Origin: Psammoneis japonica
Lineage: Eukaryota
NCBI GenBank assembly: GCA_008632985.1
Contig: QPGO01000089.1
Span: 186,001-250,000, forward strand
Direction of reading: 5' to 3'
Length of the DNA stretch: 64,000 nucleotides
Every line of letters starts with the position of its first letter. Position 1 is the stretch's first letter. A program made the translations under genes and the position numbers. The notes below the pieces were generated by a model. That model worked only from the letters and a program-made list of their open reading frames with translations, ran no database searches and was not told the origin of the DNA. Positions 1-64,000 of the stretch are shown here, one piece after another.

Positions 1-37
1 ACAAGAGGACTGCAAACAGAAAAGCAACCACACTCAC

Positions 38-889: not shown

Positions 890-1030
890 GTGCATCTGGT
901 GTGTGAACCTTGCAACAAAACAGCTTTTGCTCTGAGGCTTTGGACTCTTGCAACAGCTCCTCCCTGCTGTGAATTCCAAAGAGATGACTGGAAGTTGGCA
1001 CATCATCTTCTTTGCAAGCTTGCCAAGCAG
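890..1030 (+). pseudogene. Possible MYND zinc-finger relic
   Basis: VCEPCNK...CCEFQRDDWKLAHHLLCK resembles the MYND end motif YC..ECQ..DW..HK..C. Confidence 0.35.
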
Positions 1031-7800: not shown

Positions 7801-8099
7801 GGACACCGGGCAGCCACTCGAGCTCACGCATGCCATTTTTCCAAGGCACCGCGTGTTTGATGACGTCGAAATCTAAAATCACAGGGGCTCCCATGAACTT
7901 GCATTTGAGATTGTGTTTTTCAGAGTCACACCGGTGGCAGCGGGTGCGGTTTGAAATGACAACTGGAATCATTCAATGCCATTGTAATGACAGAAATGAC
8001 ACTGGGTCTGGGTCACCTCTAGGGTGCCAGAAGCAAGTGGCAATCGAAGTTATTTTGCCGTTCGTCGGACCTCATCAAGTGGCTCCAACACAATGTGTC

Positions 8100-9300
8100 A
8101 AAGACAGAGCACATCAGACAGCTCAACACACGAGAATGCCTCGGAATTGTGGTTTAGAAAATGTCATGTTTGGCTTTCTGTTCACCTTGTCCTCCCAGTT
8201 TTTTGACAAAGAGAGGATGCCTGGTTTGTCGCATCAAGAGCTGGCCCAAATGGTGAAGCGCTTGCAACGGGCAAAGTTCCGCGTTGTCCACACAGATGAG
8301 GACGCAGCATTCACATTGGACAAATTAGATGGCAGTCGGTGCAGTGTCATGTGTTTGCAAATGTCAGCAACGAGCAGGTTCCCAGTGCTGATGGCAGTGA
8401 GACTGTGAACGCTTGGGAGCTTGCTGTGGGAAAGGACAGCAACAATGACCGGATCGACGACACAGCTGTTTCATTTGGCAGTGCGACGGGAAGAATTGGC
8501 TCCAGGAGCAATTCCGGTGATGCTCAAAGGAGCAATCGCACTTTGACGAGGATGGCAACAATCACTGGATTGAAGGTACAACTTTGTCATTTGTTTTTGC
8601 GATGGGAAAGTTAAGCTCCGGGGACACTCCCGGCGGCGCACCTGAACAGTCGCACTGAGACAACCGTCCTGCATCTCATTCGAACAAGAAACAGGTCTGT
8701 CCACGGTTGATGTGAAGAGTGATCATCAAGAGCCAGCAGAGGAGGACGTCTTTGATAGAATGCTGAGGAAATGGGCAACTTGCCGCAAACCAGACAAGTC
8801 TGCTCTTACAGTCGACAGACACGAAACGGTGCATTAGATTTTATCGAAAATTGGGTGCTTCTTGTGGTTGGGATCCCGCGTCGCAGGATTTACAAAACGC
8901 GTCGTTTGTCATGAAGAAGGCCAAAGAGGCCGATTTGATTGACATTCACATGCTGCGAATGGCATGCGCAGGTCGAAACAAGTTGTGAAAGTCTGGATCG
9001 TGCTCTGTCATTCCACCAAGAGAAGTTTGGATGTTGCGACATGGTGAGCGTCGAGTGTTGTCAATCCAGAGAACACAAAGTGTTGGGCACGGTGCTTGTC
9101 TCATTTGCTTTTCGTTTTTCGGTTTGTTGCAACAGGCGCCATGCATTCATGGTGTGCTGAAGCGAGATCTTTCAGAATGGATACAACGCCATTGCTGCAG
9201 ATCGGAATGCTTTCAAAGAGTGGTGCAGTTGCATTCGTCAGACAACCATCTCGAATGTAGATGCAGCCACGGTTCATGATCATGCCATTCCCAGGTTCAA
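8100..9300 (+). pseudogene. Decayed gene of unknown family
   Basis: Protein-like fragments (ELAQMVKRLQRAKFRVV; KEADLIDIHMLRMACAGRNKL*KSGSCSVIPPREVWMLRH) and a GTGAG..CAG intron-like segment at about 9043-9135. Confidence 0.35.
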
Positions 9301-9909
9301 TGCAGCCATGAACAGAATCGAATTTGAAACTGTTTCACCTGCAACCCGATGGACTCTTTAGAATTTGTCACGTCTTTCTCATCATTTTTATTGTTTCCAC
9401 TGCCGAGCCACACCGACTCTTTGTTTCTGGTGTAAAGCAGTCTAACACATGTTCGTTCCCATGCATGGGTTGCTCATCAGCTTGTCACCATCAATCAAAT
9501 CAGGTTTGACGTGTGGAACTGGTTTTCCTCTAAAAGACGCATTGCACAAAAGCACAAGCAGAGCACTGGCGCAGTCTGCATGGGCATCCGGGACTCTCGT
9601 GATTTACGGAGAATGCGAATGAAGTTCACATGCATGCCATGCTCGTGCTCAAGAACTGTCCGGACTGTTTGCGGAGGCAGGAAAGCTGGGGCCCAATGTC
9701 TTGGATGATAAGATGATGGATGACGCACGTCAGGAATCCATGCTCAAGCACATTTCTCTACAGCACGAGTGGTGAAAGCAGAAAGCAGTGGAAAGAAAAA
9801 TGTGAATCAAAACTAGAGGAAAAGGTGCACACAACAGAGCTGCTCACAAAATCAAATCTGCTTCAAAAACCAAGCAGTTTTGCAGCGAGCAGATCATCGC
9901 ACTGCCCAA

Positions 9910-11225
9910 AACATGTCATCTTCATCCGTCAGCAGCAACGCGGACGTCAGCTTCTTGTTGCTGACGTGCATCAGCATGCTGGCCTCGTCCTTGCGCTTGG
10001 TGTCTGTGGTGGATCCTTCATTCTTGGCAACTGTCAGAGTGGCCCTCTGGACAACCCCATCTGGTTGCTGTCTGCACCATTGTCTTTCCTGAGATCAGTG
10101 CATTTGTTGGACTTGTTCAGCCATTCGCCAGAGGAATGGGCATCTTTGGGTGCATTCGCCGTGATTTTAGTCCAAACGATTGGTCTTTCCAGGCCGTGTG
10201 CCTCTTCATGTGGCTCATGATGATGATTCTCCAACTCATGGTGCAAGTTTCTCATGCTTCCGGTGGACAGTTCACGGCCGCGGCACCCTCTCAAGCTTGC
10301 GTGTTCTTTGGCTTCACCTTCATGCCTGCACACCTTGATTTTAAAATGCGCAACACCCCACGAGTTATCAACCTGAGCTGCTGTGGCATCCCGCTGACAA
10401 GACTGCAGATTCTGACACCGAACACCATGCAGACATTGAACTCGGAGACGACTGAGAGGTCTGTCTCCCTCTCGAGCTTTGACTGACCACAGCAGTGCCC
10501 CGCTCAAACTGTCCCAGCACAATCTTTGATGTGTTCTGAGACCATTTTGTGGGGAGAGTCATCACATGCTTGCAGTCTGCAACAATCGCTTTCCTGGTGG
10601 GGAATTGCATTTTCACTAAAAAAATCTCGCGCCAATTCAATGTCTCAAGCACTGTTCATCCCTTTTCTCTCACAGAAACTGACTCTCCTCTCAGCAATGT
10701 GCTCAGCAGTCAACATTGGCATTCTCTGAAGTCAGACAAAGAATGGAGACAATTGATTAAAGAAAGAGCTCAGAACATCTTGTTGCTCCTGGGCCCGGCA
10801 GTTTGCTCCCAGACATTTGAGGGCACGATTCTGAATGCTGCATTCTGGCAGTGAGAGAACGAGGCCGTCAGGTGCGAGACACAACATTCAACTTTCAAGT
10901 GCCCTCAACCAAATGCTGAGTTTTCAGCAACAGCCATTTCTTTTCGAATCGATCTGTGCAGTCACTGAATGTTTGCCCCCAACAGCCTCAAGCTTCGCAC
11001 TCTTTGCAGCTGACGTTGTCATTCTGTCATGTGATGCAATGCCATCGTGTTGTTGGCAACAGCCACACGAGACCTTTGGTTGTCTCTGTGTGGTCCCACT
11101 TGAACCAACGCACTCACTCACAAGACAATCAACCGTGCTGTTGGCTGTGGAAAGGTGCTCATCACAAGCATCGGCACGCAAAATCAAAAGTTGGAGTCCA
11201 ACTGGGGACGCGTTCCAGGTCTAGG
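9910..11225 (+). pseudogene. Decayed multi-pass membrane protein gene
   Basis: Hydrophobic segments in shifting frames, e.g. WSFQAVCLFMWLMMMILQLMVQ and FFGFTFMPAHLDFKMRNTP. Confidence 0.4.
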
Positions 11226-11549
11226 TGGGAACTCGCACTGCTGAACTGTGACATCGATAGTTTTTTGAATCTCGTCGTATGTCGCGCACGTAGAATTCTA
11301 CGTGATTTTTTGATATTTTGTGTCATTTTACGGTACACTTATTGAGCGATCCGTCCAAAAACTTTTGACATTTTTTGTTACAGCGCGATTCTATAATGTC
11401 TTAAGAATCGCGTAGGGCAGGTGCATTTGCAAAAACGTCGAGTGGTAAGGCATAATTGTGCACAACTTGGCCGTTTATTTGATGTGAAGACAAACATCCA
11501 TTAATTAAATTCTCGCACTACGGAGCTCGCAAGTAGAATTCTACGGGCC

Positions 11550-12215
11550 CAATGTCACACGGAGTCCCACCCAGGGCTGGAACGCGTCTGGGGAAGAAGA
11601 GCCACAGCAAGCAGAACCATTGTCATGGTCTTGCTCGAGCAAGGACAAACATCCAAGGAGAGACTTGCATTTGGGTCCACCAGAGGATGCCACAGCCACC
11701 ATGAGAACATGCGGAGTCGAGTCAAGTCGACACGTCAGGTCAACGAGGGTGGTTTCGTGTTTCGTCAATTGCGCCGACAAAGGGCAAAGTCATTCTGCCA
11801 ATTTTGAATGCTGCAGCATCAGAGCACTCAATCTATCTCTTTGTTGGTGTGTGATGTGTTTGCTTGTGGTTCCAATGCCGCATTGCTTCTTCTTTGCTCT
11901 TGGAAGCGACGACATCATTGTTGCGATGTTTTTTGTTGCAGCGCGGTGTGCGGTGTGGCGGAGGGAAGTGAATCTTGGAGTTCGGAGCTCCTGCCGTGAT
12001 GAATCTTGCCGATGTCATCGGGGTTCGCACACGACAAGCTCAAAACATGATGGTGAAAAACCGTTGGTTGCCCGCCACATTTTCGAAAAAATTTGAAATG
12101 GCCAAACCCGGGACAGGAACTCTGCATCACTTTGCTCATTGTTGCACGAAGCACACAAAAATCGCCGCCATTTGACTTTTTGAAACACATCGTCGTCTTG
12201 ATTGCCATGGTTGCT
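11550..12215. other. Short TpA-depleted block 3
   Basis: Nearly TA-free with CG retained; minus-strand relic EEAMRHWNHKQTHHTP looks like a Tyr->His converted sequence. Confidence 0.6.
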
Positions 12216-14311
12216 TCAGTTCTCTGCCAAAGGTGAGTCGATCGTCTCGTTCTCGTTGCGAATTAGATCTGCTGGAGTTAAGTCATTGAATGTCGTCCGC
12301 ACACGATTGCCATGTAGACCTGAAGGCTTGGGTCCTTGACGGTTTCCCTCTGTGCGTTTGATTGCGTATATCTTTGGAAGTCGGTTCGAGACGAAATGAC
12401 GATTGCCTGTCAAAGTAGTCCGTGGTTCCGACGGAGATACACCACGATTGCCAGCAAACTCGCTTCTTGCGTGTGCGCTGAATGCTTGTAAACGTCCAAT
12501 ACGGCAGTAACCCGGTGCCAACCAACGCACTTTTTAGTGCAACGGTTGTTTAAGTAGGAACCATATGAGGGCCAGCCTCTGCTTTCTTTTCTTTTTGAAC
12601 GCACGCTGAACGCCTGTAGACGTCGTGGACTAAGACGGTGTGCTTGATACCCCCGAAGGGCAACCTTTTTCGTGAAGGTTGTAAGGTGGTTCAGACCGCT
12701 TGAGTTGCTCATTGAGCATCTCATATCTGATTCCCCGTAGGTTTAATACTCCTATGGGTCGCCGGCCCGTTATATCAGCTATTCTCCACGTCCCACAGCG
12801 TTTGAAGATCTGTTTGTATCGTTCGTTCGTATTGATCTACTCGCTGAGTTATACTTTGTAACTCACACTCTTTTTTCAGATTTTGATTTCTATTTCAACA
12901 GATGATATGAATGGCGAAGCGTGTTGTTGAGAAGCCACGCTGACACTCGCATCTACAATTGCTCTGGATAGTGACGTTGAGGTTTCATTGTTATGGCTCT
13001 ATGGAATTTGAAGTCGCTTGCAAGAAGACAATGTATTGATTCAGATCGATAAGAGTTTCCTCAAGCTCCTTCAAGTATCTGACATTCGAGTCATTCGGGT
13101 TTAAAAATATGCTTCCCAACGTGCATCTACCTCCCATCTTAATCACGTCAAAGTAGCAGACGACACTCCTACGCAACAGGTGCGTCTCTGCGCTCATTCG
13201 GATCGATAAGGCTTTTTATGCTCTTCCAAGCATCTGATACGCGGAAGTGCATCAACCTACAACCTTCGTGAAGTCTCAGCAACAGACGATGCTCCTACTC
13301 AACCGGTGCGTCCATGAGCCACTTTGGTTGCTCCACTTGACGTGTTCTCCAAGGAATATAAAAGTAGCTAGCAAACGCTCCCTCGCACAGCTCGATGCGA
13401 CTCTCTAAGCTCTGACGGCTGATCCATCCCAATTTATGTGATAGTGGCTGTGCATTTCATGTAGTAGTCGACCCGAGCGCTCTCTCCAAGACATGCCCGT
13501 CGCTGTAATTTATTCAAGCGCTTGCATTCACTACCACCGCCCCAAGCCCGTAACCGTGTGTGCCCAAGTGGTGGGACAATCAGGATTCCCGACGTGGAGA
13601 ATCGCTTTCAATATCAAAGTGGTGCTTGCTTCATATGATTTCCTATTTCCTCGTCTGTATTTGCTGCAACTCCTTTCACAATTACTGACTGGGTGCTGCG
13701 AGTACCAAGATGTCTTCTTTAGCGAGCCAACATTGCCTGCTGTATTTTGGCTGCGACCATTCGTCTTGTCACACCATCAAGAACACGTGTCGCGCCAAAG
13801 CGTCCTTTGCAGCAATACGACACGATGACCAGGCCTAAATTCGAGCGACGGGAAAGCGGAAGGAGTAGATGTAGCACTTAATACCACCCGTCCCTCTCTC
13901 GTAATAGCTCCACACTCGGAGACGAGTGATAGGCCAATACTGTATCCCTCGCGAGTTTGACTATCCATCGTGGTACCCTAGTTGAATTATCCCAGAGCGA
14001 TATTAGATATGTTGCTTGACCATTTTGTAGTAGGGATAGCGTCACACATCGTACTTACACGTCTATCGTTATCATAGGCTCCGCACTCACTCTCTAGCAG
14101 TCTGCAATAATTGCTTCTTTTCTTATCGAGACTCACAACCCTCGCGCGTTTGGGGGCTGAACTAAAACAACAAACACAGAGGCAAACATGGGAAACTTTT
14201 TAGCTACTTGACATCCGCCTGTGTTAATAGTACGACATAACTAGCAGAACGACGTTCCGCCAAAGATACCCCGCCGTTCGATGACGGGTAGACTAGAGCG
14301 GCGCATTTCTT

Positions 14312-17422: not shown

Positions 17423-17689
17423 GGTGGCGGGTGATGCGTTCTTGATTTTTTGTGATATGATAATAAATACTGTAAATGAGAATCCGGGATTGGCGAATAA
17501 TCAGCAAAAATTAGCGTTTCGAGCGAAATTAGCCGAAAGTTCTCTTGGTATTGAAATACCCGTTTACGACGTCATCGATTTCACGCAAAAGTAATCAAAA
17601 TAGGCAAAAAATCGAGCTTAACTTTGAAAACTTTCTTTGAAAAGAAAATGCGCGCTGAAACCCATCCAAAAGCATCATACTCTGCAATC

Positions 17690-19900
17690 CGTCCATTTCT
17701 CCATTGGCACCAAACGCACAGCTGCAACTTCTGAAAGAACTCATGGATGAGGCACCTCTGTTCCAACTTCAATGGTGACACCGGCAGGCCACACCAGGGT
17801 GCCCGCACAGTGACTCACATCAAGAGCACACACAGTGGGCAACAGGGGATCATTTTGCTTCTGATGCGCGTCCAGCATTGACTGGTGCTCACGGCCCTGC
17901 TCATTCAATGGTGCAGCGCCATTGACTCATTGCCGCAGTGCATGCGATGTGACCTGATGTGACACTGCATCCATGCATGCACCCACATCCAAGCACCATT
18001 GCTTTTGATGGCACACAAGAAACCTGCACAACTGCTGTCGCCAGCGCTGCTCTGTCGCGCCAAGGCAAAAAATCCAGTGCTGAGCGAAAAATTCCACAAG
18101 CAGCCGCTCCCACTCCCTCACACATCTGAACACCTTGGCAACAACTTGCATGGATTGGCAGCCCAAAAGGGCTTCTTGTTGGGGCACTGCAGCCGGCAGG
18201 TCCCTGGTGATTGATCTGAAGCAAAAGCGACCCAGCAGGAGTCGCAACAGGAGGGCCGGGTGTTGTGAGTTTGCCAGACGCGCTCCAGCTCTAGAGGTGG
18301 GACCTTGCACTGCTGCACTGTGACATCAACAGTCTTTTGGATCACATCACATGCCACGCATGCACATTTCCACATGTCACATTCTGCGAAATTGTTTCAT
18401 GCTCCCTGTTTTGCGAAGCCAAAGGCTTTCTATTTTCAACATTTGTGAGAATGAAAATGCACTGGGTGTGTGGTCTTTAATGTCTGTTGAACATGCCCGG
18501 GCAAACTGTCAATCATGTGCTCCAAGCATGGAGGAGGAGATGCGTTCGCAAAGTTGCCTCTTTTTCTGTTTTGGCGATCATGTGAATTTTCATTGCAGTG
18601 CAACATCTGGTGTGCCAACAATCTGGGTCTGACCGTCTGCCACAATCTGGGCATTTCTTGACTTTGGTGCCAGATTTTTGTCAACTTGCAAGCCAATTCT
18701 CTCCTCAAACATGGCATGAGAACTGTGTGAGTTTGTGAGCTTCTAAAACCAAAATCGCTTCTCACTTTTAAGTGTGTCATTCCTTTCACATGATGCAGAC
18801 CTGCGCCCCAATTGACATTTGGGGTTTCTCGTTCTTTCAACACAAATGTTGCTGCTTGTGATCCACCCTCCTTTTCTGCCAACTCGCCCTGCATTTTATC
18901 TCATTGCCGCGCCATTTTCAAATCCAAATTCCCAATTGCCACACGTTGTTGCATCCAAACCGCATCACAGAATGTTTTTTTTTTAATTTTCACTTGTCTG
19001 GATGTTGTTGTTTGTTTCAAATTAAGTTCACACACCAGTTTGGTTGGTGGCCATTGCGGCATTTGCTGCTGCTCCGTTGCCTGCAGCCACCGCCTGCAAT
19101 GGCAGGTCCTCTCCCATTGGCGCCGCCCATCCTTCCTCTCTCTCCTTTCTTTTTTCCTCTCTTTTGCGTTTCTTGTTTTCCTCCTGAGACAAGTTTGTCT
19201 TCTCTCGCCTTCTCTCCTTGAACCATGCACCGAATCCCTGGTTGTTCTCTCTGTCTTTCACCACCTGCTGACACAGATCATTGCACTTCTCGATCCCCTC
19301 CTTGCTCCATCCTTGGTTACTCTTTGCCAATTCCCCCGCCGCCTGCGCTGTGTGCTTTGCAGGAGCAGCATCTTTCACAGTTGGCTTTCTTCTCCTTGCA
19401 ATGTTTTCTTCCTTTTCCAATTTCTCTGCCGTGTCCTTCACCTTGTTGCAGCAGTTCAAGCACACCAGCAGAGCAAGCGCCTCCGACGAAACCGAAAGCC
19501 ATTCCTGAAGCATGTCGGTTGTGCTTCTGCCAAACTGCGCTTGTCCCACCACCGTCGGCACCACAGTTTCCAAGAACCACACGCATGTGTCCTTGCCATT
19601 TCTTCCCTTTGTCAAGTCTTCGTAAGCCACCAGCAATCCCTCTAAAGCAGCAACTGCACAGACAATGGCAAAGGAAGAGACACTCATCCCGTTGGACAAT
19701 CGCCTCCAACACAATCACCGGCACGCACACATCTGCTTGCCTGTCATTCTCCTCCTGATGTTGTCCTGCACATTGTTCCTCTTTCGGTTGAGTTTGGTGA
19801 ACGGGAATCCGAGGCTTGCAATGCAAAAATGACGGGTGCATTTTGGTGGACGATCCAAAGGCATGAAGCGACATGTGTGTCGGTTTGTGATTCACGTCAT
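17690..19900. other. TpA-depleted block 4
   Basis: TA nearly absent; Tyr-poor, Cys/His-rich translations. Confidence 0.8.
18436..19700 (-). mobile_element. Decayed repeat/transposon-associated ORF
   Basis: SVSSEALALLVCLNCC...KHT...GWSKEGIEKCNDLCQQVVKDR resembles a high-copy diatom repeat-borne protein pattern (EA.ALL..N...KYT...GWS.EG...N.L...V..DR) recalled from memory; no transposase core or termini identified. Confidence 0.5.
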
Positions 19901-19972
19901 GAAACAGTGTAACTCACGTGCTTGTTTCCCCACTTTACACGCTGCCCGTGCTCCCAGGTCCGCGGCAAATCC

Positions 19973-20293
19973 AAAATGAAGAAAGCATTTTGTCAACTGG
20001 GCAACATTTCGTTTTTTCCTCCCATTGCCTTGGCGTTCTGTTTTGTGCCCACTTCTGTGGAAAGCTAAATTGTTGTGGCCGTTGCTCCCGAAAACGGAAG
20101 CAATCGAAGAGCATTTTGCCAGCGACAAGCCTTGCATTCCGCTGATCTCAAGGCGGCCGCCACGAAAATCATTGTGAGCGTCATCGAAAACACGACCCAG
20201 AGCATCAAGGAGGACAAGGATGCCATCAAGGCATCCAAAGCGCTCAAGGCCTTTACAAAAAAGCAACAAAAGCAAAAGGGTGGTGCGGCATGA
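19973..20293 (+). pseudogene. Tyrosyl-tRNA synthetase C-terminal domain fragment
   Basis: KMKKAFCQLGNISFFPPIALA...*...PENG...LHSADLK matches KKAFCEPGN...PENGG...LHPGDLK; has an internal stop and a deletion. Confidence 0.7.
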
Positions 20294-27189: not shown

Positions 27190-28900
27190 ATCGAGCTGTG
27201 TGACAAAAGATGGGCCCGAGTCATCTGCCAATTGCAGGAACTTTGCAGCTGAAAGCTGATGACATTTTGCATTCGACTCGTGATTCCCAACACCACTGGA
27301 GTAATTTCCCATGAGGTGGAATTGTGAATTGTGAATTTTGCTGCATGTTCTCAGGAACCGTGTTGCACATGTCAGGCTTCTGTCCAACAGAACAAGGTGT
27401 AGAAGCCACAAGCACCAGCAGACGAGTTGGGGATTTTCCAGTGACTTTATTTTCCTTTTCATTGCTGTGAGTGCCAATTCACCATGTGGGCCCTTCCACT
27501 GATCTTTTTGCACACTGCTCAGTCCACTTTGCTGGTGCTTTGTATTTGTTGTTGTTTCTTGGCAAAGGCAATGAGCCTTCACACAAGACAGTGGAGTTGG
27601 CTCCCAACAAACTTCACAATGAGATTTGTCCTCTGCAATCAGCCAACCACCCTTGCGGTCATCTCCAAACTGGGCAAACACAGCCAGAACTGTGTGGCGT
27701 CAGAATCAACATGGGCAAACACAGCACACTCAAAAAGGCCCATTTGACACACACCTCTCTGACATCTTTCACACATCCTTGTTGCCATTGTCTCTCTTTG
27801 GGACTTTTGCAGCTGAGCAAGACACTCAAACAGAAGAAAGATGGGAGAAGAAGCAAGTCAAGCTGCAGGGCACCTGAAGCTCCAAGAACAGGGAACTTCC
27901 AAAGCCTGCAAAGAAGAAGAGAAAGAGTGCACACCTGCTCTGTCCTGAGATCTGCCTTGTTTGCCATTGTCTCTCTTTGGTGGTCAGATGCCCAAAAATT
28001 GGAGAAAAGAGGAACAAGCAGCAAGCCAAGCTGCGGGGCACCTGACAAAGCTCTCCGAGAATGGGGCACTTTCAAAGCACCTCTTGCAGTGCTGCAAGAG
28101 CTTTGTGCAAATGGGCTTGTGCAAGGGACAGAGATGCTGTGAGGCTGGTCACTGCAGGAGACCTCTGCCTTCTGCATTTGAGCTTTTTCACTTCTCAAAA
28201 TTGCTGCAAGACCCATGTGAGAAGTCAGGGCCAGTGGGCAGCTCAACCAGGCATGCCCCACTCCACAACCCCTGCTGCCGCTGTGGCCATGCAGCAGCTG
28301 CCTTTCTTATTTGCTTGTTCCAGTTGTGCCAGATCAGGAACTTTGGCTGGCTGGCTGGCTGGAAAATGCCCCTCACATGCCCAGCCAAGCAGCTGAAAAC
28401 ATGTGCAGGAAAGCCACAATGATGTGCCCCCCTCAAAACAGGCAACCAAGGTCAGCAAATTTGCCCCCAGAGGCCCGCTGCAAAAAGCAGCCAGTCATGA
28501 GAGCCATGAGCAGAGTCCAAGCCCCCCAAGCTGCTCCAACTTGACATTGGTTTTCCAGCCTGCTCTGTCTCCTCGGGGGGGTGTTCGCAGAGATCTCTCA
28601 GCAGCTTGTCTCGCCCACCATGCTTGTGTCTGGCAAGCAAGGATGAGCACAAGAACCTGCCTCAAAGAATGGAAAAGCAGGGTGCACCCAGCAAGAGCAA
28701 AGAGAACATGTTGGTGTTAGAAACCCAACCAAAGTTGCTCAAGCAGCATCGTGTGTTTTCATTCTGCCCCTTCTCTCCAGCCATCGCAGGCAGCGTGACG
28801 GCACACAGCAAAGCTGCTGCTGTTGTGGACCTTGGCGGAGCTTGCATGACAAATGGCACATTGGGCAGTTGTCAAGTGACTGCTGAGCTTGCCACCATTA
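27190..28900. other. TpA- and CpG-depleted block 5
   Basis: TA and CG nearly absent; no recognisable family; flanked by a CTAG tract near 26967 and a CTAG/CG-rich tract at 28915-29160. Confidence 0.8.
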
Positions 28901-38894: not shown

Positions 38895-41800
38895 AAATGC
38901 TGCTGCAACCAACAAGAAGCAACAGGCTGGCGAGGAAAGAAAATGCCCAAAGTGTGAGAGATAAGCACCGGCGCTTGCCAGCACCTTCCTCAGAGACTGT
39001 GTGTTGCCTGGGGCACTTGGCAAGTCCGCGCACTTCCCAACAAATCTGTGGAGACATGCCAGAGCCTGCACAACCAAAGAAATTTGTGGCAGGATGATCC
39101 TGCACATTTTTGTGTGCAGGGCCAAGAGCCATTTGCTTTGAAAACTCAAAACAACCCCCCCAGCTTTTCAAAGGCACTTGAGAAAAACCCAGCCATTGTG
39201 TTTTCTTGCAGAAGTGCTGTGCTCCAAGAACACATTGAAACAACCCAGTGACAAGCTCACACCACTCAAGAAAGCCCCTCAGAATTGTTCCAACATCCAA
39301 AGAAAGGAACGGAAGAAACCTGAAATTCAGAGCACAGGAGGGGCAGCAACGTGCTGCTCGCCAAACGAGCAGCACCTTTTTTGCCCCAGCTCCAGAATCT
39401 CCACATGGTGCAAAGCATTTGGCAAAAGCAGTGACAAGCACAGATTTGTTCAAGGCAAATGCCAGAGTGCACTGCTGCACATTGCAGCAGACTGTTTTAC
39501 AGCGCAGCTTGCATGTGGAGAAAAAAGAGCAAGAGGGAAAGTGGACACACCTGCAACAAACTTGCAGAAGATGTGAAACATGAGGGTGGCTGATTGCACC
39601 TGTGCTTCTTTTTCTTGAGTTTGCAAGCTGGTGATTGCTCTGTTGTGCAAAAGATGAGCATGTCAGCAGCCCAAACAAGTCATCAAGTTGAGAGATCATT
39701 TTCAGGAAGAGTCAGCTCACTTTTTGCCTGCTTGTTGTGCAGAGGACCGTGACAATGCAATGGGCAAGACACAGCTCAGTCAAGCAACAAGTGCTTCAAT
39801 TTCAACACTGCTGACAGTGGGCTGGTGGTGCAGCAAGTCTGAGTTTGTGTGTGGGAGATGTCAAGGAGTGCCTGTTGTTTCATTTGCAGATTGCTGTCAG
39901 CTCCTCTCCTTTGCATTGATGCCACCATGATGGATGGGACCCATCTTGTGGCTTGTGCTGCAAGCAAGCCCTGGTGTTTCAGGGGTGGCAAACACACTTG
40001 GCAGTGTCAGAAAGAGCCCTTCTGCATCTGTGGCAGCAGACTGTTCCATGCTCAAGCATGGAATTGCAGGTCTGAGCATCTCACAGGATGAAATTGATCC
40101 ATTTGGTGGGAAACCTGAGCTTGAGGTGGAGCAACTCCAACACAGCAACTGCTGGCAGCAGAACAACTTGGCTCAAGTCCTGAACTTTTGGCAGAGCAGC
40201 AGTCAGCAACTGCCCTGTGGCAGCAATGGAGAAGGTGGCTGAAGCATGCATTTCTTGGCACAAAACACCAACATCAGGAGCCAGTGAGATGCTGGGCTTG
40301 TTTGAATTCTGCCAAGATTTTGCAGCTCAGTTGGGATGTTTTTTGCATTTTTCTTGCCAGAATCAAGCAACTGCAATGTCATCATTCTTGGTGAAGGAAT
40401 GTGAAAATCATTGCATTGTTGACTTTTGCCAACTTTTGTGTTCATTTCAAAGCCATGTCTGGGTGTTTCAACATGGCCCCCCTGATGTCAGTGTGTGCAA
40501 TTTGTGCACACCATGATGCATTGAATGCTCAAAACTTTCATTCACAACCACAGCATTTCCTTCCCCACAGGAGCTGGAAACTTTTCTGTTGCTTCTTGTG
40601 CTGCCAGCCCTCCTCCATGCCTTGTGAGAGCCCTTGAGTGGAAAGTGCAGAACCAATTGTGCCCTGGCTGGCAAGTCCGCATGAACAGGAGCACAAGTGG
40701 CTGCCTTGGGGCAAATGCAGGAAGCTGGCAATGGAGCAATGCTGTGGCAGTGCATGCATGGTTGTCAGTGCAAATGGGCAGCACATCATGTTGAAAGGCC
40801 ATGCAGAGTCATGTTGGCATGTGGGTGCAAACCCGCTGGTGGAATCCACAATTTTCCATCAAACAATGCCAGGCTCCATTGCTGCATCAGAGGATGACAA
40901 TCTGTCATTTTTTAGCTTCAGGCTTGATCCACAAATGATGCTGGACCCCCTTGGACTGCCACAAAGGCTGTCATTGCTGGCACATCAGGTTTGCTGATGC
41001 ACTCACACCCACACTGCCAGCCAAAGCTCTCAATTCTTTGACAAGACTCATTCCTCCAGAAATGGTTGCCAAGTGGCCTTGTTGCTGCAAACGCTGACTT
41101 GGAGCACCTCAGCAACTGAGGACAATGGGTGGCAGGCAGTTGAATCATGAGAGTGTCCTGTGTGCTGCAGTCCATGGTGAGCAAGACAGCATGGTTGAAT
41201 CAGGCAAAGAGAAGGGCCATTGGTTGCAGAGGCCATCACCTCACCACAGCATGACAGCAATGCCCACCACATGTCACCACAGGATGATGCTCCTCAATCC
41301 TCAACTCAGACAGCCAACACTGAGAATTTTGCTGGCGTGCATTAAAATCAAGTGGTGTTGGAGTGGAGAATTGGTGGAGCTCTGCACTCTTCCCACAGCA
41401 GCAGGAGAGGCTCCAAAGAAATGTGGCAGCTTCTCCATGTTGTCATTGCAGCCACACTTTCCAGCCAGCACCATTGCCGCCAGGCTTGCACTCCTGGATG
41501 AGTGGGGCACTTTGTTCAGTCTGTGCACCAGTGTGGGGTTGGAGCTGGGTCTTGCACACATTTCTTGAAATGGACATGGGGCAAGGCAACACATGCTGTG
41601 CAAAAACGCAAGAGCTTGGTTTTGGCTCTTCTTGCAGTGGCTCAGCTCAGATTCTTTTTGCTTTCTTGCCCTTTTTCCTCTTGGAAAATTTCAGCTGTTG
41701 TTCTGCAATTGTGCCAAAAATGACTGTCTCAAGATTGCAGCAGTGTGAAAAAAGCCCATTGTGGCAGTTGTCCAGGCAAACAACCTGGAGCAGATTCAGG

Positions 41801-44800
41801 TGACATCAGCAGACAGTGCTGTCACATCTGTCAACTCACCCACCATGTTGAAGATCAAGGATGCACACATGTCCTCACATCTGCAGTGTGGCTGCCAAAG
41901 CCATGGCAAATGCTCCCCACTGGAGACTGGAGCAGTTTCAATGGACATTGCCAAGCTTTTCTGTGATGCACAAAAGCAAGTGATTGCACCTCTGGCTGAG
42001 TTCATTGCACCAATCATTTGAGCTGATAATTGAGGCAGCTGCCCAGGTGGTTGCTGCAGAGAGGGTGTGCAGCAAGAACCCTCCACAGGGAGAGCAGCGC
42101 TGACACCTGCAATCTGATGGGTGATGACAGAGTTGCTCATGCCAGTCAAATCACAAGCAAGCTGGGCAATGAGATTCTTTCTGCACTGACATTGGCAAAT
42201 TCAGTTGACAAGCACTTGACAACACCATTGACCATGGGTGCCGCAGCTGCAGCTGAAGCTCTCCAAGCACCAAAACCCAAACTCGCTGTGCCTCTTGGTT
42301 TTTGAGGATCAACACCAAAGCCTCCTGCATTGCTCAAAAGATTGGGGCCAACCACAAGGCCACAGTGGTGCTGGTTGGCGGGAGGCAGGCACAGCTAGAA
42401 AAGCAGAAAAGCACAAGCTGAGGTGGCAGCCTGGCTGCTGAAATCTTCTGTGCCAAGGGATCCAAAAAGGGCTGCAATCTCACAGAGTTTTCTGGGGTTG
42501 CAATTTTCTCAAAACCATGAAGCAACCCATGCTGACAAATGAAATGTCATCACAAGTGTCATCCCAAGCATGTGCTGAGAACAAATCCATGGGTGTGAGC
42601 CCACATTTCCAGATTGGCAGCAAGCTTTTGTCACTCAGGGGGTGGAGCTGTGGATGTTTCCTTGTCACTTGCCTCAAGAATGGTTCAGCCAGGCTGATCT
42701 GAGGCAGCTGTCATGGCTTCAGCACAGTCATGGCTGCTGTGCCTTTGAAGTGAGAGCCCCTCCCAAAGTGTGGTTGACCACTGCATCTCTCCACCACATC
42801 TGCCATCTTCCACAAAGCCTTCAGAACCCACAAATTTTGTGGCAAGCATTTCACTTTGTTGTGTCCTGGAGCCACCTGTTCCTGGACGCATTGCTCTTGG
42901 CTTTTGTGGAAGCAAGAAACAAGTGCACGTGCATCATTGACCATGGCCAAGTGATGTGCCCGACCCACCATTGCCATGTGCATGCACGCACGCACATGCA
43001 CATCTGTCTTCAGAGGACCATCTGGGCTGGCTGCATGTCTTCAGGGGGGACAGATGGGTTGGATGGGACAAATGAAACTTGCATCTGATCAGACCACTGA
43101 GTGGTCAATGAAATGCTCTCTTCAAGATTGAAAGTCAATTGGGTGTGGACATTGTGAAAGAATCCAAAAACAAGGCTGAGTCTGAAATTCTTTTTTGACA
43201 TGGGACTTTGTTCATGATCACCGCAGTCACTCAAAGAGGCCTGGGTTGATGCTGGCATTTGACAAATTGTGATGTGACAACAAGGTCAGGTTGGTCAATG
43301 AGCATTTCTTGTGACAACAGGAAGAATGGGTGACAACAGGGGTCAAATGATGATGTTCTCCTGACAAATCATGGTTGCTGCTTGACATTGCAAACAGAGT
43401 TCTGGAGAGCAGTTGACATTGGATGAAGGCAAGAACTCAAATTTGCAGTTGTGGTGCCTGTCAAAAGGGGCTTGGTTCAAAATGAGGAGTTTGTTTTGAG
43501 AGGACAGTCTCTCCATTGTGTCAGACAAGTGACAAGGACACCGGCACGCCACTGTTGTCATGCAAGCAGCAGATCAGCAGCTGGGCTGTGTGGCACCCAA
43601 TGCAACAAGGAGACAAATTCAGCAGAAAGACCAAAAATTGCAACTGGCAATTGATCCAAAGCTCTTCCAAACAAATGAGTCAGCTCCAAACAAGATGCTA
43701 AGCCACAAAACAAAACATTGCAGATCTGCAACAGCCCAATTTTGTGGCTGAAAATGTGTCAGTGTCAAAATGATGATTGGAGCCCAAATGACAGTGACCA
43801 CCTTGCAGCTGGTTTTCAAAAATTGTGACACAGGAAGCTCATTTCTTGTCAATGGATCCTTTTGTCAAACACCAAAATGGGTTGCTGACAACTCCTCTGC
43901 AGAGCAGAAAACAAAGCAGTGTGTCTGCCCCACTCACAAAAAAAGGTGGAAAACATTGCAGCTGCATCTTGCAAGCACCAGCATGACAACAGAGGCCAGC
44001 AACAAGCACAACAGAAAATGCAAGAACCCCCACATGCCAGGGAGTTCTCTGAGCATCTTGTTGCAGGCTGCTCCCAAAGAAACAAGTTCAGCCAAGACCA
44101 GCTCAATTGATGTTCCAAGTTTTTCAGCACTGTCACCTGTTGGGCAGCAAAAAATGCTGATTGATTTGCTCTGGCAAGCAGAGCATGCTTTTGCACTTGT
44201 CATTGCTGTCAAGTCCAACAAACACAGCATGGAGCTCCTTGCAATGAACACAGAGCTCAGATGGCAGCAAGGAGTGACAGTCAAGAGAAGTCTTTCTCCT
44301 GTGCTGTTTTGAGTTTTTCTCTTGGGCAGCCTTGCTGCGAGCAACATTGGAGGCAACATCAACTGAAAAGACAGTGTGCATGAACAGAGCAGCAGAGGGG
44401 AAGGAAGTGCAAGGACAGCCCCGAGGACATGCAGAACAATTTTGAGGAAGAAGAGAGTGCAGCAGGGAATGAGAGTGATGACACAAGGTTGAGCATTGCT
44501 TGCCAAAAAGTGGAGAGGTGCTGGGTGCAGCAGTGCACAGTGGTGCACACCAAAATCACTCACAGAAGCACACATGGTTGCTCTGGATGCAAGTGGAGTC
44601 AAAGAAGCACCAACACATCCCAAATGTTCTTCTGGAAGCTGTGGAGTGGATGTTTGAAGGCCACACTCCACAATGGGTGGAGCAGATTCTTTGTTCTGGT
44701 GGCCAGGTTTGCCCTGGGGACAACAAGAAAAGGTGTCACCTTTGAATGCAAGGCAAAGCTCTTCATCATCAAAACAAAAAAAGAACCAACCTGACACTTT

Positions 44801-46990
44801 GATGAGAAGATGTGGCAACTTTTCCTCTCCAGAGCAGTGGCATCAACGTTCTGTGCTTGTTTTGCACAGGAGGTTGCAGAGACAGCGGGCTGCTTTTGAC
44901 AAGGTGATGCTGTGGCACCACGAGCAGCACTTCTTTGAGTCTTGCTGCAAGCTTCACAGCAACATGACCATCAAACACACAAAAATGACAATGTCCAGCA
45001 AGCTTTTGCATTTCACCCCAGTTGGTGGGAGGCTGAGCAGTTCTGACATGGGCTCGAATTGTCAAATGTTGCCATTGAGGAACAGCTGCGTGTGCCCTTT
45101 TGTCCCCCCCATTCTCACAGCAGCGGGCAGATGCCCCTCACTCTCACCATCCTCGTCATTGACAAATGCAAGAAATCCCACCTGCTTCTCCCTTCTCTGT
45201 GAATGCATTCCTTGTGTGGCACATTTGCCATTGCCTTGTTGGTCCATTGTCTCTTTCAATGGTGATGCAAAATGTGATGCATGACATGTGAGATGGATGT
45301 GTGCAGTGGATGCTGAACCTGACAAGGCAAGATGGATGAGCCAAGCCAATTCAATCAAAATAAATTGCTTGTCATGTCATTCGTGCTGAAAGTGTTGGGC
45401 AAGTGCAATTGGCTTGCATTCGCATGGACTGGTCTCGTGGATGAAACAGTCAAGTCAACTGAAATGTTGTGCTCTCTTTGCTGGCAAATGTTTGCATGGT
45501 GCAAAAGATGCGCCAATGTTCTTCACGCAAGAGGTGGTGAATGTTGCATCATCTGGTGTTGATTGCAGTTGTCTTCTTGTTGATGTCATTGCACAAGTTT
45601 TCCCGCAACAGCCCAGTTGCAACAAGAACCTTTCATCAACAATTGGCAACAATGCCACCTGGAAGAAAGGTTGGCTCAAAAGACAAGAAGCCCAGAAAAA
45701 AGCAGCGCTCCTTGACTGAAGAACAAAAAGCTGAAAGGAAGAGAGGAAAATCTTGATGACGAAGGCACAAAAGGCCCGGGGGGCTTGTCAGGCCTTTTTT
45801 CTGGTCAACCAGCTTTTGCTGTCAATGCATCAAATGACAAGGGAGCAAATGGCTCACTTGGGCAAGAAGAAGAGAAACAGCCATCAGATGAGGAGGGAGA
45901 ATCCACTCCTGTGGCTGCCCTCATGGCTGCCCTCAACATGCCGCCTGCAATGGCAGAAGTTGATGGTGCATGGTGTTGATGATTGTGATGGCGAGGACAT
46001 TGACCAAGCCACTGAAGATGATGAAGAAGAAAATGATGAAAACTTTGATGACAACAGCAGGCAGGCAGGGTGATGCTGAATTGTCTCCAAGCAATTTGTG
46101 CTCTCATCTGCAGGCAGAGACAAGCAGAAACTTCACGGCACTGAATGAGAGATGGCTGTTGAAACCAGTGGATGACAAGGACTGGAGAATTCCAGTTGCC
46201 ATGGCAAAACATGTTTGTGAAAAACTTGGCATTCATTGTGGTGAACCATTGTGCTGCCTTGAGGTCCCAGCTTGGCTCCCAGGGTGCTAAAGTGTTGAGG
46301 ACAGCACGCCAACATGGGCAAGACAAATGCGAGAACTTCAATGAAAATGGATGTCCAACTGGTTGGTTGTGGTGACATGTGAAGAAGCGCGTGCCTTGTT
46401 TGATTGTGGTTTCACACTGGACAGTGTTGTTCCCACATGCAAGCTCCAATTTTGTCATGACAAGCTGCTTCCCAGGAGCCGTCGAGCAAAGAGGGCTGCA
46501 GAAACTTGAGCTTGCACTGGCTTTCAAGGGCAACCGAACCCTTTCACAGAGATTTCAGGTCATGGCACATCAAGTGGCACCCCCTTCCTTGGAGGCACCA
46601 CTCTCAGTCTTGCCGGGGAACCACCCCTTGGCTCTCTGAGGCCATCTCAAACCAAGGTTCAAGTGACAGTGGGTCCCGCCCCACGACTTGTGTTTTCTGG
46701 AACAAAATGCACACCAGACATGCTCAAGATCAGAGGCAGTCAATGAACCAAATCCTTGCTTGTTTCGAACGTGGAGAATGAATTGTGGAGGAATGTAAAC
46801 ACATGGGCAAGCATTCTTGGTGTCCCAGAATGATTTTGTTTGTGCTCCAGGAAGGATGGCGGCTCCTCGTTGTGGCAATGAATGAAGGAAAACATTCCGT
46901 GGCGTCTGGAACAAATGCACAGAACTTTGTCATGGTTCAACATTGTTGTTGCAAAACATGTCCATTGCCAGAGATGATCCACATGCCGCC
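38895..46990. other. TpA- and CpG-depleted block 6 (about 8 kb), decayed repeat/TE-like content
   Basis: Runs of hundreds of bases with no TA and no CG (e.g. 39900-40600); dense spurious ORFs ending almost only in TGA. Confidence 0.9.
45650..46290 (+). mobile_element. 5' fragment of a repeat/transposon-associated ORF
   Basis: MPPGRKVGSKDKKPRKK, an acidic tract, then MLNCLQAI..LQAETS...RWLLK...CEKLGIHCGEPLCCLEV..WLP, recalled as a diatom repeat-borne family (..EP.YY....WLP). Confidence 0.4.
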
Positions 46991-47044
46991 TCTAACTTCG
47001 CGGTTTTGGCTGTGGCCCGTTCCCGATTGGCGTCAAGGAAGCGA

Positions 47045-60639: not shown

Positions 60640-60784
60640 ACAATGCGATCAGCTGCTTCCGGACGTCATACCTCATGTACATAACACTGCTAAATTTAAA
60701 ATAGAGATAATGCGTAACCTGCCACACTCTACCTTAACCCAGGTCACACTTGCACCCCCTTTACTTATGACCTGTCCTTTGCAT

Positions 60785-63700
60785 GACAAGCGCAGAGCAC
60801 GGACTCACAGATGATGGAGGTAGTCCATGCGCATTCCCCACAGCTTTGTACACAGTGCCTGACGCCTTCCATTCTCAAGAAGTTTCAGTTGAACTGGCAT
60901 TGAGGCCCACGCATGTCTGTCCACATCACAACTTGCTTCAGGTCAATGTCGTTGCATTTGAATTGGCTTTTGCAATGTTGAACAATCTCAAGAAGAGACA
61001 TGCATTGTGGAAGACAGGATGCCTCTTCTTCTCTTTCGATGTTTTTTCACCAAAGAAGGGCCAGACATCACTTCTTGTCCACACTGTTGTGACCAGTGCT
61101 GTGATTGTCCTCAGAGAGCAAACAACAACAAAGATGCAGAGGCTGGTGTGAGCATCCACAGAACAACTGCCAGTGTTGGTCAGGTGTGCTTGATGCACTC
61201 TCCAACTCTGGGTGGGACCTTGCACTGCTGGGCTGTGCATTTCTGCATGGCTTTTGGACTTTTGCAGCATCATTTTGCAGCACAATTGTTGGGCTGTCCA
61301 TTCAACAACTTTTGACATTTTTTCTGTGGGAATCTGCTGAAAACAACCCATGTGATGCAAAACACTCAAATCAAAATCTGAGTGTTTGTGCATCACAAAG
61401 CTGTTCTTGGTTGGCTTCTCTCAGTTTGCTTGTGAAAAAGAGAGAACTTGATTGACAGTTGTCTGATGAGGCGAGCTCAGTTGCAAATGCATTGGTCTGA
61501 AATGTGCCCAGTTGGGTGACAGCAAAGCCCATTTTGCACAAGGACAAAACTCATTGTGGAAGATGGATGGAATGCGCTCCAGCCCTGTGGGTGAGACTTT
61601 GTGCGACATTTGCCCACAGAATTCTGTGCATGAGCTGCCTCTGCACTTTGCACTTTGGCCAATGAACACATTTGTTTTTGACATTTTTAAATGAACAACC
61701 ACCAAGTTTGTGGCAAATCTGTGCCTGCTGTGAGCACTTGAAGTTTTTGGCAAGCTGCCTGTCCTGGGCACCTGCACAGCTGTTGAAAGAGAGTGGATCA
61801 CCCAACAACTGCACTGCACTGTGATTCAAAATTTTGCCTGAATCATGCAGAAATGACAAAAAGAACATCAACGCCACAGTTCAGCAGTGTGAGGTCCCAC
61901 CAGTCAATGCTGAGTGGTGCTGCCAAACTTTTGTCTCAGGGGAGCTCAAAGAAGCTTTGCACATGCAACATGGCCACGAACCATCTGACTTGCACTGGCA
62001 CTGCAATTGACACAGACTCAAGTTCTCTCTTCAGCATGCTCCTCAGTGTGAGCAGAAGGGTGACCTTGTCAACTCCTGATGTGACAAGATCCACAACAAA
62101 CTCAATGATCTGCTGTCCTTCCTGACATGCAAAATGCCTGCTGTCATCAACCCTGGTCACATCTCAGGAAGCCCAAGCTCCACAAGGCAGTTCAGCAGGT
62201 TGCCAAGTGCAGCTGCAGACTCAAACAAAGTTGTGAAAGAGATTGTGAGGTGCATCATGGGTGTGGAGATGTTCTTCTCATTTGTTGCTGGTGGAGTGAG
62301 GTGTTGGCTGTGATGCTGCTGTGTTTTGTGGATGTCAGAGAGTGGCCAACACTTCAATGCTGAGCCTTGCTTGCCCAAAACTCCAGAGCAAACTCTGGCA
62401 TCAGGGAGATCACACAAGGAACAGGAGTCATTTGAAAATGTTTTGTCATTGACAACAAATTTGTTTTCACAACAAAAAATGCAAAACTCTTGTGTGAGAA
62501 AATGTGGTGCACAACATCACACTGGAGAGTGGTTGGAGCCAACAACTTTGTGGGAACTCAGCTGAAATGTTGTCTGATCAAAGGCACTTTGATTTGCACA
62601 CTGAAGAACAACACCTTTGATCAGATGACATCAATTGACTGCCCAAGAATTTGACCTTCAAACAAGGACAGATGGGCAGACTGACAGCGGTCATTTTTGC
62701 TCTCCTGCACAAATTTGGCACAATGACTCTGAGAGCCATGATGACTCCTGTTGAAACAGAGAACAAACAACAAACCTGCTGGAGAGAGGAGGAGAAGAGT
62801 CAAGGAAGGCACCAGCACCCACACTCTTCAGTTTGAAAAAGACATTTTGGCACAAAAACAACAACTCTCACAACAGCCAGAGCTGCTTTCCTCTGCTTGT
62901 GTGGCTCTTGCACCCCCCCCAGCCATGTTCCAGCCATGAGTGCCAAACAAAAAAGTGAAAAAACGGACATTTTGTTGAGCCGATGCAGATTTCGTGTGGC
63001 TCATTTGTGGGTGCTTGAGTGTGCTAAAAAGACCCACCACCTGAGTGTGCCCAAACAGGCAGCTGCTCTTCATTTCTCATTCTCATTGAGTTGAGAAAGC
63101 ACCCCCTTGACACAAGGGTCATTGATCTAGAGTTGGAGTTTGCATTTGTTGTTTGTCAGCATGGTCTGACAAAACCAGCTGAAAGTTCACGTCATGAAAA
63201 CATGAGCTTGCCAAGATTCCAGGGATCCACAAATCTGATTCACAAAGAGTGCAGACACCATGTGCATCATGAAGGAAGTGATGAAATGTGGTGTCTTGCA
63301 TGCCAAAATGGACCTTTTGCATTCACAAGATTTTGCGCTGCTTTTTGCACCACAGAAAGTTGACACAAAACAGACCAGCAATGCACAGAAACAACCTGGC
63401 AAGCCAACTTAGATGAGGCTGATTTAACGGCACTGTTTTTGTGTTGAGCACTTTAAGATCAGGGGGGCAAGGTGGCCTGAGAAGAGGGTGTGCAAATTTT
63501 GCAGTTGAAAGTTGCTGAAATCTCAACAAGTTCATGGTCATTGACATGATCAAAAAAGAAATGGAGCCAACAAACTCAACCAGCAAAACATGATGGCTCT
63601 GATGGCATCATTTGCATTGCCACAAGGTGGAAAAAAGCAGCTGCTGCTGTGTGTGGTCATGTTCATTGCCAAGTCAGCTTCACTTTTGGGGCTTGCTTTT

Positions 63701-64000
63701 TACTGAAAAAACAGCTCTGATGTGTTCCAGCTGTGCATGAACAAAAAAATGCAAAAAATGGACATTTTTTCATGCAGACATGGGTTTCACATTGTTGCTG
63801 ACTTGAGAACAAACTTGCAAACCCAAAACTTTGTCTCTTGCACTTGCAGTTGCATCAAAAGCATCCCAGCACAAAGAGCCATGGATCTGGAGCTGAAATT
63901 AACACTTGCCCTTGTGTGACTTGACAAGCCAATTAAAAACCCATGTTGCAAAAAGATTGGCTCACCAAGATTCTGCATTGCTTTGGATCTGGTTTTGTGC
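60785..64000. other. TpA- and CpG-depleted block 7 (runs off the window)
   Basis: TA and CG nearly absent; remaining TA mostly in TTA/TAA. Confidence 0.88.

Follow-up and report, generated by a model that had tools for sequence, protein, structure and literature searches.

Flanking context of residual TpA steps in TpA-purged blocks of a Psammoneis japonica contig

Genes and TpA-purged blocks in the window

We analysed a 64,000-nucleotide stretch of Psammoneis japonica contig QPGO01000089.1 (GCA_008632985.1, positions 186,001 to 250,000), referred to below as the window. Six blocks in the window have lost most copies of the dinucleotide TpA, and the TpA steps that persist in them share a flanking sequence context. 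The blocks occupy intergenic space. Outside them, long open reading frames (ORFs) correspond to coatomer beta, dephospho-CoA kinase, a class-V aminotransferase, a PPDK_N protein, an Asp/Asn hydroxylase, a leucine-rich repeat (LRR) protein and a scramblase. The 841-amino-acid coatomer ORF was 72-81% identical to its best 120 matches, and all of those with a named organism were diatoms. Because these ORFs are ordinary eukaryotic ones, and the coatomer matches are diatom wherever named, the window reads as nuclear DNA of an intron-poor diatom without a close relative in the protein collection.

The blocks were set from dinucleotide counts per 500 bp and cover 24 kb of the 64 kb. The remaining 40,033 bp were used as background. 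Four blocks, A1-A4 (15,093 bp), are purged of both TpA and CpG and are called TA+CG-free here. Blocks B1 and B2 (8,874 bp) are depleted of TpA and are called TA-only. All six are listed in Table 1. They are 1.6-8 kb long, have borders 100-200 bp wide and adjoin genes with normal TpA.

Table 1. TpA-purged blocks, residual TpA steps of block A4 and adjoining features, in window positions. TTA/TAA denotes a TpA preceded by T or followed by A.
Feature	Position	Strand	Description
Block A1	1..2311		TA+CG-purged; extends past window start; 2 TpA, both CTAA (TTA/TAA 2/2)
Block B1	5967..12264		TA-depleted, CpG near normal; 65 TpA: TTA/TAA 41/65, TTAA 8
Block B2	17679..20254		TA-depleted, CpG near normal; 14 TpA: TTA/TAA 12/14, TTAA 4
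Block A2	27300..28899		TA+CG-purged; 6 TpA, TTA/TAA 4/6
Block A3	38963..46993		TA+CG-purged, 8 kb; 9 TpA, TTA/TAA 8/9
LRR gene	59491-60639		ends ~150-200 bp before the start of block A4
Border zone	60640..60849		between LRR gene stop and block A4; TA density normal to ~60760
Last border TpA, GTAC	60849		within border zone
Block A4	60850..64000		TA+CG-purged, non-coding; extends past window end; 9 TpA and 16 CpG in 3151 bp
Residual TpA, TTAA (TTTTTAAAT)	61688..61689		block A4
Residual TpA, CTAA (GCTAAAAA)	63025..63026		block A4 (GCTAAAA)
Decayed direct repeat, copy 1	63105..63221	+	partner 63864-63975, within block A4
Residual TpA, CTAG (TCTAGA)	63128..63129		block A4; A at +2 on both strands
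Residual TpA, TTAG (CTTAGA)	63410..63411		block A4
Residual TpA, TTAA (TTTAAC)	63425..63426		block A4
Residual TpA, TTAA (TTTAAG)	63454..63455		block A4
Residual TpA, TTAC (TTTTTAC)	63701..63702		block A4
Decayed direct repeat, copy 2	63864..63975	+	contains TTAA sites 63900 and 63934
Residual TpA, TTAA (ATTAAC)	63900..63901		block A4
Residual TpA, TTAA (AATTAAAAA)	63934..63935		block A4 (ATTAAA)

The background held 1,681 TpA and 2,166 CpG. There were 26 TpA and 128 CpG in the TA+CG-free blocks, and 79 TpA and 403 CpG in the TA-only blocks. Thus, TpA density in the blocks was 4-21% of that in the background. For the TA+CG-free blocks, the ratio of observed to expected TpA was 0.00-0.07 in most 500-bp steps and at most 0.15 near block edges. 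In block A4, the background rate predicts ~130 TpA and 9 were observed. TG and CA stood at ~2 times expectation in the blocks, and G+C content was unchanged. For the TA-only blocks, trinucleotide losses in the TA classes (0.066) and CG classes (0.017) compare with a gain of 0.085 in the TG and CA classes. Since TpA falls, TG and CA rise and the trinucleotide losses equal the gains, the composition is the footprint of a change of TpA to TpG or CpA. Only TpA was lost, and ApA, CpA and GpA were retained; the target adenine is one preceded by U/T. AAA/TTT was enriched in the blocks (by factors of 1.33 and 1.20), and ApA was not depleted.

The TA-only blocks have lost ~79% of TpA and ~16% of CpG. 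Because they keep CpG, the TpA purge and the decay of CpG are separable processes. The 128 residual CpGs of blocks A1-A4 favour G+C-rich flanks. GCGC, CCGC and GCGG account for 11.7%, 10.9% and 7.8% of them, compared with 4.6%, 5.0% and 5.2% in the background.

The median period-3 signal was 2.5 in the background, against 1.4 in the TA-only blocks and 0.9 in the TA+CG-free blocks; block A4 had none. We scanned 154 stop-to-stop ORFs of at least 80 amino acids from the blocks against Pfam. No match lay above the cut-off, and four weak matches fell below the curated cut-offs. The 14 stop-to-stop ORFs of block A4 gave no Pfam match. The only block segment with some period-3 signal contains a 283-amino-acid ORF (18794-19642), for which no homologue was found at E<=0.001.

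Sequence context of the residual TpA steps

A sequence-only reading of the window had proposed that the residual TpAs are mostly TAA or TTA. This holds in block A4, where eight of the nine sites are of this type and five are TTAA. The bias is significant against both the background share of 0.356 (p=0.0016) and the share of 0.54 given by a first-order Markov model (p=0.034). Blocks A1-A3 agree, with TTA/TAA at 14 of 17 TpAs. The TA+CG-free blocks together have TTA/TAA at 22/26 sites and TTAA at 6/26; the TA-only blocks have 53/79 and 12/79. Over all blocks, 75 of the 105 residual TpAs are TTA/TAA, compared with 599 of 1681 (35.6%) in the background. The blocks' own composition predicts a share of 0.54 under the Markov model, and the excess is again significant (p=0.0002). 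TTAA was found at 18/105 sites against an expected share of 0.10 (p=0.018). The TTA/TAA share was 68-80% with three automatic segmentations. In the background it was alike within (0.349) and outside (0.364) long ORFs.

Every site listed in the sequence-only reading is present (61688, 63025, 63128, 63425, 63454, 63701, 63900, 63934 and 41343, the last being ATTAAA). The list left out 63410 (CTTAGA) and the border site at 60849 (GTAC). It had singled out the CTAG at 63128 as an exception. This site is indeed unprotected at +1, and it is the only one in block A4 with neither a preceding T nor a following A.

Survival was measured as TA/(TG+CA) at equal flanks for three classes: TTAA, one-sided and unprotected. 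The predicted order, with TTAA highest and unprotected lowest, was observed in both block types. Survival was 0.0258, 0.0114 and 0.0022 in the TA+CG-free blocks (chi-square p=7e-5) and 0.108, 0.062 and 0.029 in the TA-only blocks (p=2e-4). Conversely, the order was reversed in the background (TTAA 0.13, one-sided 0.21, unprotected 0.37). We conclude that the context bias is real and statistically sound, on a base of 105 sites in one 64-kb window.

We then described survival of xTAy as exp(-(k[y] + k[complement of x])). This model has one rate for each 3' neighbour of the adenine, sums both strands and was given a Poisson fit. For the TA+CG-free blocks, the rates were 0.49 for k(A), 2.72 for k(C), 1.49 for k(G) and 2.64 for k(T). 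For the TA-only blocks, k(A) was about 0, k(C) 1.31, k(G) 0.63 and k(T) 1.53. Likelihood ratio tests rejected a uniform rate (p=1e-8 and 7e-12, respectively), and the residual deviance of the two-strand model was 8.1 and 6.9 on 12 degrees of freedom. Relative to pyrimidines, G at +1 had a rate of 0.45-0.55. T-A-A was at least 5 times slower than T-A-Y. As proposed, TTAA behaved as protected on both strands, and the two strands acted additively. One-sided survival squared was close to the product of unprotected and TTAA survival (0.084 versus 0.063 in the TA-only blocks; 0.0029 versus 0.0012 in the TA+CG-free blocks).

The length of the footprint was determined by comparing the 208 flanks (strands) of residual TpAs with the flanks of TG and CA steps in the blocks. 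The difference was significant at +1 (p=4e-9), +2 (p=9e-12), +3 (p=4e-4) and +4 (p=0.008), and not at +5 or +6. Protection by A at +2 equals that by A at +1 and does not depend on it. Thus, A occupied +2 on 45/92 strands with A at +1 and on 54/116 strands with another base at +1, where 0.24-0.34 is expected (~0.25 for the latter group). Among 3' dinucleotides, AA (3.4-fold), GA (2.4-fold) and AG (2.0-fold) were enriched in survivors relative to their background share; CC (0.33-fold), TA (0.25-fold), CT (0.22-fold) and TG (0.13-fold) were depleted. T at +1 was also scarce among survivors (12% versus 28%). The depletion of T at +1 indicates a TnAn polarity and not mere A+T richness. The target had been described as T-A-[not A]. 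The direction of that rule is right; in place of a simple exclusion we find a grading at +1 (pyrimidine > G > A) and a further protective A at +2. It had also been argued that the preference suits an enzyme better than drift. A short flank footprint that fades with distance supports this view, as it fits a local sequence preference better.

Products were sorted into 32 flank classes, and the TG:CA split was compared with that predicted by the survivor-derived rates or by a uniform rate. The survivor-derived rates gave the better fit, clearly in the TA+CG-free blocks (X² of 43 versus 84) and slightly in the TA-only blocks (20.7 versus 23.5). In the latter, TGA/TCA did not rise (x1.06), whereas the other TGN/NCA classes rose x1.23-1.58. 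A flat TGA/TCA class is expected if TAA is destroyed via the opposite strand. TG was about equal to CA in all six blocks, so both strands are hit equally; no strand bias of the products was found in the six blocks.

It could be supposed that the rate is uniform, and that the residual TpAs are newly created or mirror an ancestral sequence with its TpAs in TnAn islands. In favour of this, A/T runs abound in the blocks and few residual sites are present. Moreover, eight of the nine TpAs of block A4 lie in the final 1 kb. We calculated, from the blocks' own 4-mers, the TTA/TAA share that would arise by transitions, GC>TA transversions or AT>TA transversions. For the TA+CG-free blocks the expected shares were 0.48, 0.60 and 0.35, and for the TA-only blocks 0.46, 0.52 and 0.36. 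Against the counts observed in each block type, every route of creation was rejected (p<=0.0075). Transversions in A/T runs cannot be the source of TTAA, as they would give it a share of 0.006-0.02, against 6/26 and 12/79 observed. In addition, the survivors are T-depleted at +1, and hence not simply A+T-rich, and the split of the products is in line with the model of context-dependent rates. A uniform rate is therefore very unlikely.

Alleles, repeats and neighbouring features

We compared the window with k-mer contigs built independently from read run X1, possibly the sample behind the window assembly. These contigs cover 44242-46503, 60598-61237, 61296-62349 and 62557-63747, with 10, 4, 3 and 4 differences, respectively. 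Their depth over the blocks was ~60, as in the adjoining genes. Heavily modified DNA may give systematic base-calling errors on some platforms, and the blocks might in principle be an artefact of assembly, polishing or base calling. With 3-10 differences per 640-2,262 bp at this depth, the X1 contigs reproduce the blocks. This excludes an artefact of assembly or polishing and does not speak to a platform-wide one, as X1 is possibly the source sample. Overall, a technical origin is hardly credible. Runs X2 and X3 gave no cover of the blocks at 44001-46001 and 60676-64000.

Eight of the ten differences in 44242-46503 fall at pyrimidine-purine (YR) steps. At 44594-44595 and 45644-45645 both bases differ, with TG in the window and CA in X1. 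Other differences between window and X1 are TG versus TA (44648), CA versus CG (45207) and TG versus CG (45946 and 46388). With 10 differences in 2,262 bp, ~0.04 adjacent double differences are expected by chance and 2 were seen. Apparently, an ancestral TA or CG was resolved oppositely in two alleles or strains. The double differences show that YR steps were recently hypermutable; as a hint of a mutation rate exceeding the genome mean by orders of magnitude, a trait of the B. natans system discussed below, they could equally derive from CpG. Among the 40 of 444 differing places that were listed, none falls within 60850-64000.

Block A4 contains a decayed direct repeat (Table 1). The pair was detected only after purine/pyrimidine recoding (123 bits, against at most 72 in three simulated sequences), and so the copies differ mainly by transitions. 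Among the differences are CTAG versus CTGG, CG versus TG and TG versus CA.

These comparisons bear on a selective origin of the pattern. Stop codons include TAA, and many eukaryotes use A-rich motifs as RNA-processing signals. Selection might keep TpAs as signals (stop codons, or polyadenylation- or promoter-like motifs) or might purge TA and CG on an RNA. Against this, the blocks lack both Pfam domains and a period-3 signal (median 0.9 versus 2.5 in the background). Furthermore, the rule is strand-symmetric, is graded over four positions and is seen in six separate blocks. At one and the same step, alleles and repeat copies differ as TG versus CA, a result that mutation produces and selection does not. 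We regard selection as highly improbable.

Blocks B1 and B2 have a segment of ~100 bp in common (11206-11304 and 18276-18376). It is 77% identical, or 92% after purine/pyrimidine recoding; no two blocks share any other clear similarity. The window also holds dispersed repeats with normal TpA and CpG (52124-52460 and 55082-55912 versus 57027-58115; 73-80% identical). The pair 55082-55912 and 57341-58115, also 73-80% identical, is unpurged; therefore, repetition by itself is insufficient to draw the purge.

Other features lie away from the blocks. An A+T-rich island at 15501-16000, with 62 TpA and 10 CpG per 500 bp, is the opposite extreme to the blocks. It is flanked by a short-chain dehydrogenase gene and the scramblase gene. 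A 358-amino-acid ORF on the minus strand (52858-53934) matches the ADP-ribosyltransferase families PF03496 (E=3.5e-12) and PF01129. Such an ORF is unusual in a diatom nuclear gene set, and no link to the blocks was seen. Just upstream of the coatomer ORF, an X2 contig omits 108 bases (50454-50561) with CT..AC ends; read on the minus strand, these are GT..AG ends. The gap suggests a short intron close to the 5' end of the coatomer gene, X2 not being recorded as RNA. A single PPDK_N domain is divided between two plus-strand ORFs (23828-24661 and 24714-26639) separated by 52 bp, probably by a short intron or a frameshift.

A probable TpA-directed process and its likeness to known systems

What we observed is the loss of TpA with its TG and CA products, a hierarchy of flanks, additive action on the two strands and recent hypermutability of YR steps. 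These observations very likely reflect a mutational process that is directed at TpA and depends on context. In such a process, a non-coding block would be swept by TpA-specific transitions to TpG or CpA. Each strand would be acted upon independently, at a rate set by the 3-4 bases 3' of the adenine. T-A-Y would react fastest; T-A-G would have roughly half its rate and T-A-A would be slower by a factor of 5 or more, with A at +2 protective. TTAA and TnAn contexts would remain because neither of their strands reacts quickly. A second process, confined to four of the six blocks, would convert CpG to TpG or CpA, presumably by deamination of 5-methylcytosine (5mC). With CpG decay added to TpA loss, every pyrimidine-purine step would end as TG or CA.

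The agent would most probably be a polynucleotide adenine deaminase, converting A to inosine, which is read as G. It would act on silenced or foreign regions of nuclear DNA, by analogy with the proposal made for Bigelowiella natans. We infer the class of enzyme, DNA as its substrate and the selection of the blocks. Taken as a whole, with an adenine deaminase working on nuclear DNA, the explanation is one that we consider probable.

An alternative is that the agent attacks the thymine of TpA, by a hydroxylation or other modification that pairs with G, or is an error-prone polymerase in repair. The flank rule would then be recast, so that T after T-rich sequence is spared. TpA is palindromic and all our counts were strand-symmetrised, so they fit a T-directed agent equally; the near parity of TG and CA in each block suits it too. 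Context-specific thymine-modifying enzymes exist in other protists. However, no thymine-modifying enzyme was found in the window, and a deaminase is the only candidate put forward to date in the one experimental system that has this signature. A polymerase-eta-like WA bias would also erode ApA. Such a bias is unlikely because ApA is not eroded, AAA/TTT being enriched in the blocks. Overall, we think an agent of either of these kinds unlikely, and we favour the deaminase.

Several points weigh against the deaminase explanation. The sample is small, with 105 residual TpAs from a single 64-kb window. The ancestral composition of the blocks was assumed to be like the background or like the flanks of the blocks' own TG and CA steps. 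Because TpA is self-complementary, A-directed and T-directed agents leave the same footprint. The ratio of allowed to blocked products was weakly raised, at 1.65 and 1.62 versus 1.40 in plain background (p=0.017 and 0.11), and in block A4 it was 1.49 (p=0.63). No deaminase domain was found in 86 background ORFs and ORF fragments and the 154 block ORFs of the 64-kb window, and no gene of another kind stood out there as a candidate agent. Nor was any viral or transposon domain recognisable by Pfam among the 154 block ORFs. In plain self-BLAST the blocks were mutually dissimilar, except for 11207-11304 versus 18277-18376. With no such domain and no mutual similarity, foreign or repeated DNA as the target is without support. 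As eukaryotic ADAT2/3 edits tRNAs with A at position 35, 'not before A' is not known as a trait of ADATs. Finally, ADAR2, with a hot spot reported as 5'-UAG (PMC10661471), prefers a 3' G, and in the diatom blocks G at +1 is only intermediate.

The closest known case is that of B. natans. According to the main text of a preprint (Mettrop et al., bioRxiv 10.64898/2026.01.13.699255), an integrated giant virus and a virophage acquired 231 mutations in mutation-accumulation lines; 230 of these were A>G/T>C changes, every one at TpA. The same text reports 124 TpA-poor, CpA+TpG-rich clusters in the genome, mostly unannotated, and proposes an ADAT2 homologue as the agent (bioRxiv 10.64898/2026.01.13.699255). 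The two systems are alike in the change of TpA to TpG or CpA, the confinement to discrete nuclear regions, the depletion of TpA with enrichment of CpA and TpG, the mostly unannotated clusters and the adenine deaminase proposed as agent. The likeness rests here on the footprint, including the TA/TG and TG/CA differences between alleles and repeat copies, and there on direct mutation calls. The systems also differ. The host is a diatom in one case and a chlorarachniophyte in the other. The purge is near complete here (0.00-0.07), whereas in the virus region of B. natans the main text gives a Rho of 0.45. Of the six diatom blocks, four are CpG-poor, and 'CpG' is absent from the main text. The origin described there is viral, and no viral or transposon domain is recognisable in the diatom blocks. 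The flank rule is likewise absent from the main text, where 'context', 'trinucleotide' and 'flanking' have 0 occurrences; supplementary tables may hold flank information. In full-text literature searches covering TpA/TpG hypermutation, adenine deaminases and diatoms, this preprint was the one relevant result, and no diatom report was found; a hit that joined diatoms and hypermutation (SPLASH) proved unrelated. We also scanned 21 loci of at least 6 kb, from 67 metagenome loci (425,046 bp) around coatomer relatives. None of the 21 had a TA-free stretch; they are gene-dense contigs of other diatom species, a small, biased set with little bearing on prevalence.

Fungal repeat-induced point mutation (RIP) is alike in the block-wise saturation of transitions at one dinucleotide in non-genic DNA, with loss of coding capacity. 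RIP converts CpA to TpA, raising TpA. We rejected it as the process here, since TpA is destroyed and CpA and TpG rise, which is the opposite direction, and the blocks are not detectably repeated. The comparison of TpA hypermutation with RIP is made in the preprint itself (bioRxiv 10.64898/2026.01.13.699255). Decay of CpG driven by 5mC resembles the change of CpG to TpG or CpA in A1-A4, which is absent from B1 and B2. It cannot remove TpA. In the diatom Phaeodactylum tricornutum, 5mC is reported to be confined to transposable elements (PMC12344493). By analogy with that account, the CpG loss in four blocks would fit methylation of silent DNA in diatoms.

The polynucleotide adenine deaminases TadA/ADAT2 and ADAR prefer a 5' U or T, as at the TpAs of the blocks. 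They differ in being RNA enzymes or engineered editors. The tRNA loop sequence read by natural TadA is U-A-C-G. A variant of TadA-8e is described as preferring a YAC context (PMC13109818); its pyrimidine-type 3' neighbour is like that of the fastest contexts in the diatom blocks. The 5' base is strictly T in the blocks, because CpA accumulates and is not edited. Editing of the ADAR type, which favours U or A as the 5' neighbour, was rejected, as ApA is not depleted and G at +1 has about half the rate of pyrimidines.

We place the diatom as a further host of a kind of hypermutation described very recently, and it brings with it a flank fingerprint. A TpA-specific nuclear mutator had been reported once before (2026 preprint, rhizarian alga). 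A matching footprint in a diatom, close to saturation, would mean that the process is no peculiarity of a single species. The TA-only blocks show the mutator at work without CpG decay, separating it from cytosine methylation. Purged blocks conceal a foreign-DNA origin from homology searches. The flank rule (T-A-Y > T-A-G >> T-A-A, protective A at +2, reach of ~4 nt) is a quantitative fingerprint for enzyme candidates and for comparison with the de novo mutations already published for B. natans. It is possible, though we put it forward only tentatively, that diatoms and chlorarachniophytes share an adenine-directed, RIP-like genome defence. A nuclear DNA A-deaminase that edits T-A-Y-B and spares T-A-R-A over ~4 nt would then remove TpA from certain silent DNA, independently of CpG methylation. 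If true, such a shared deaminase defence would point to an old DNA-editing immunity across the SAR supergroup.

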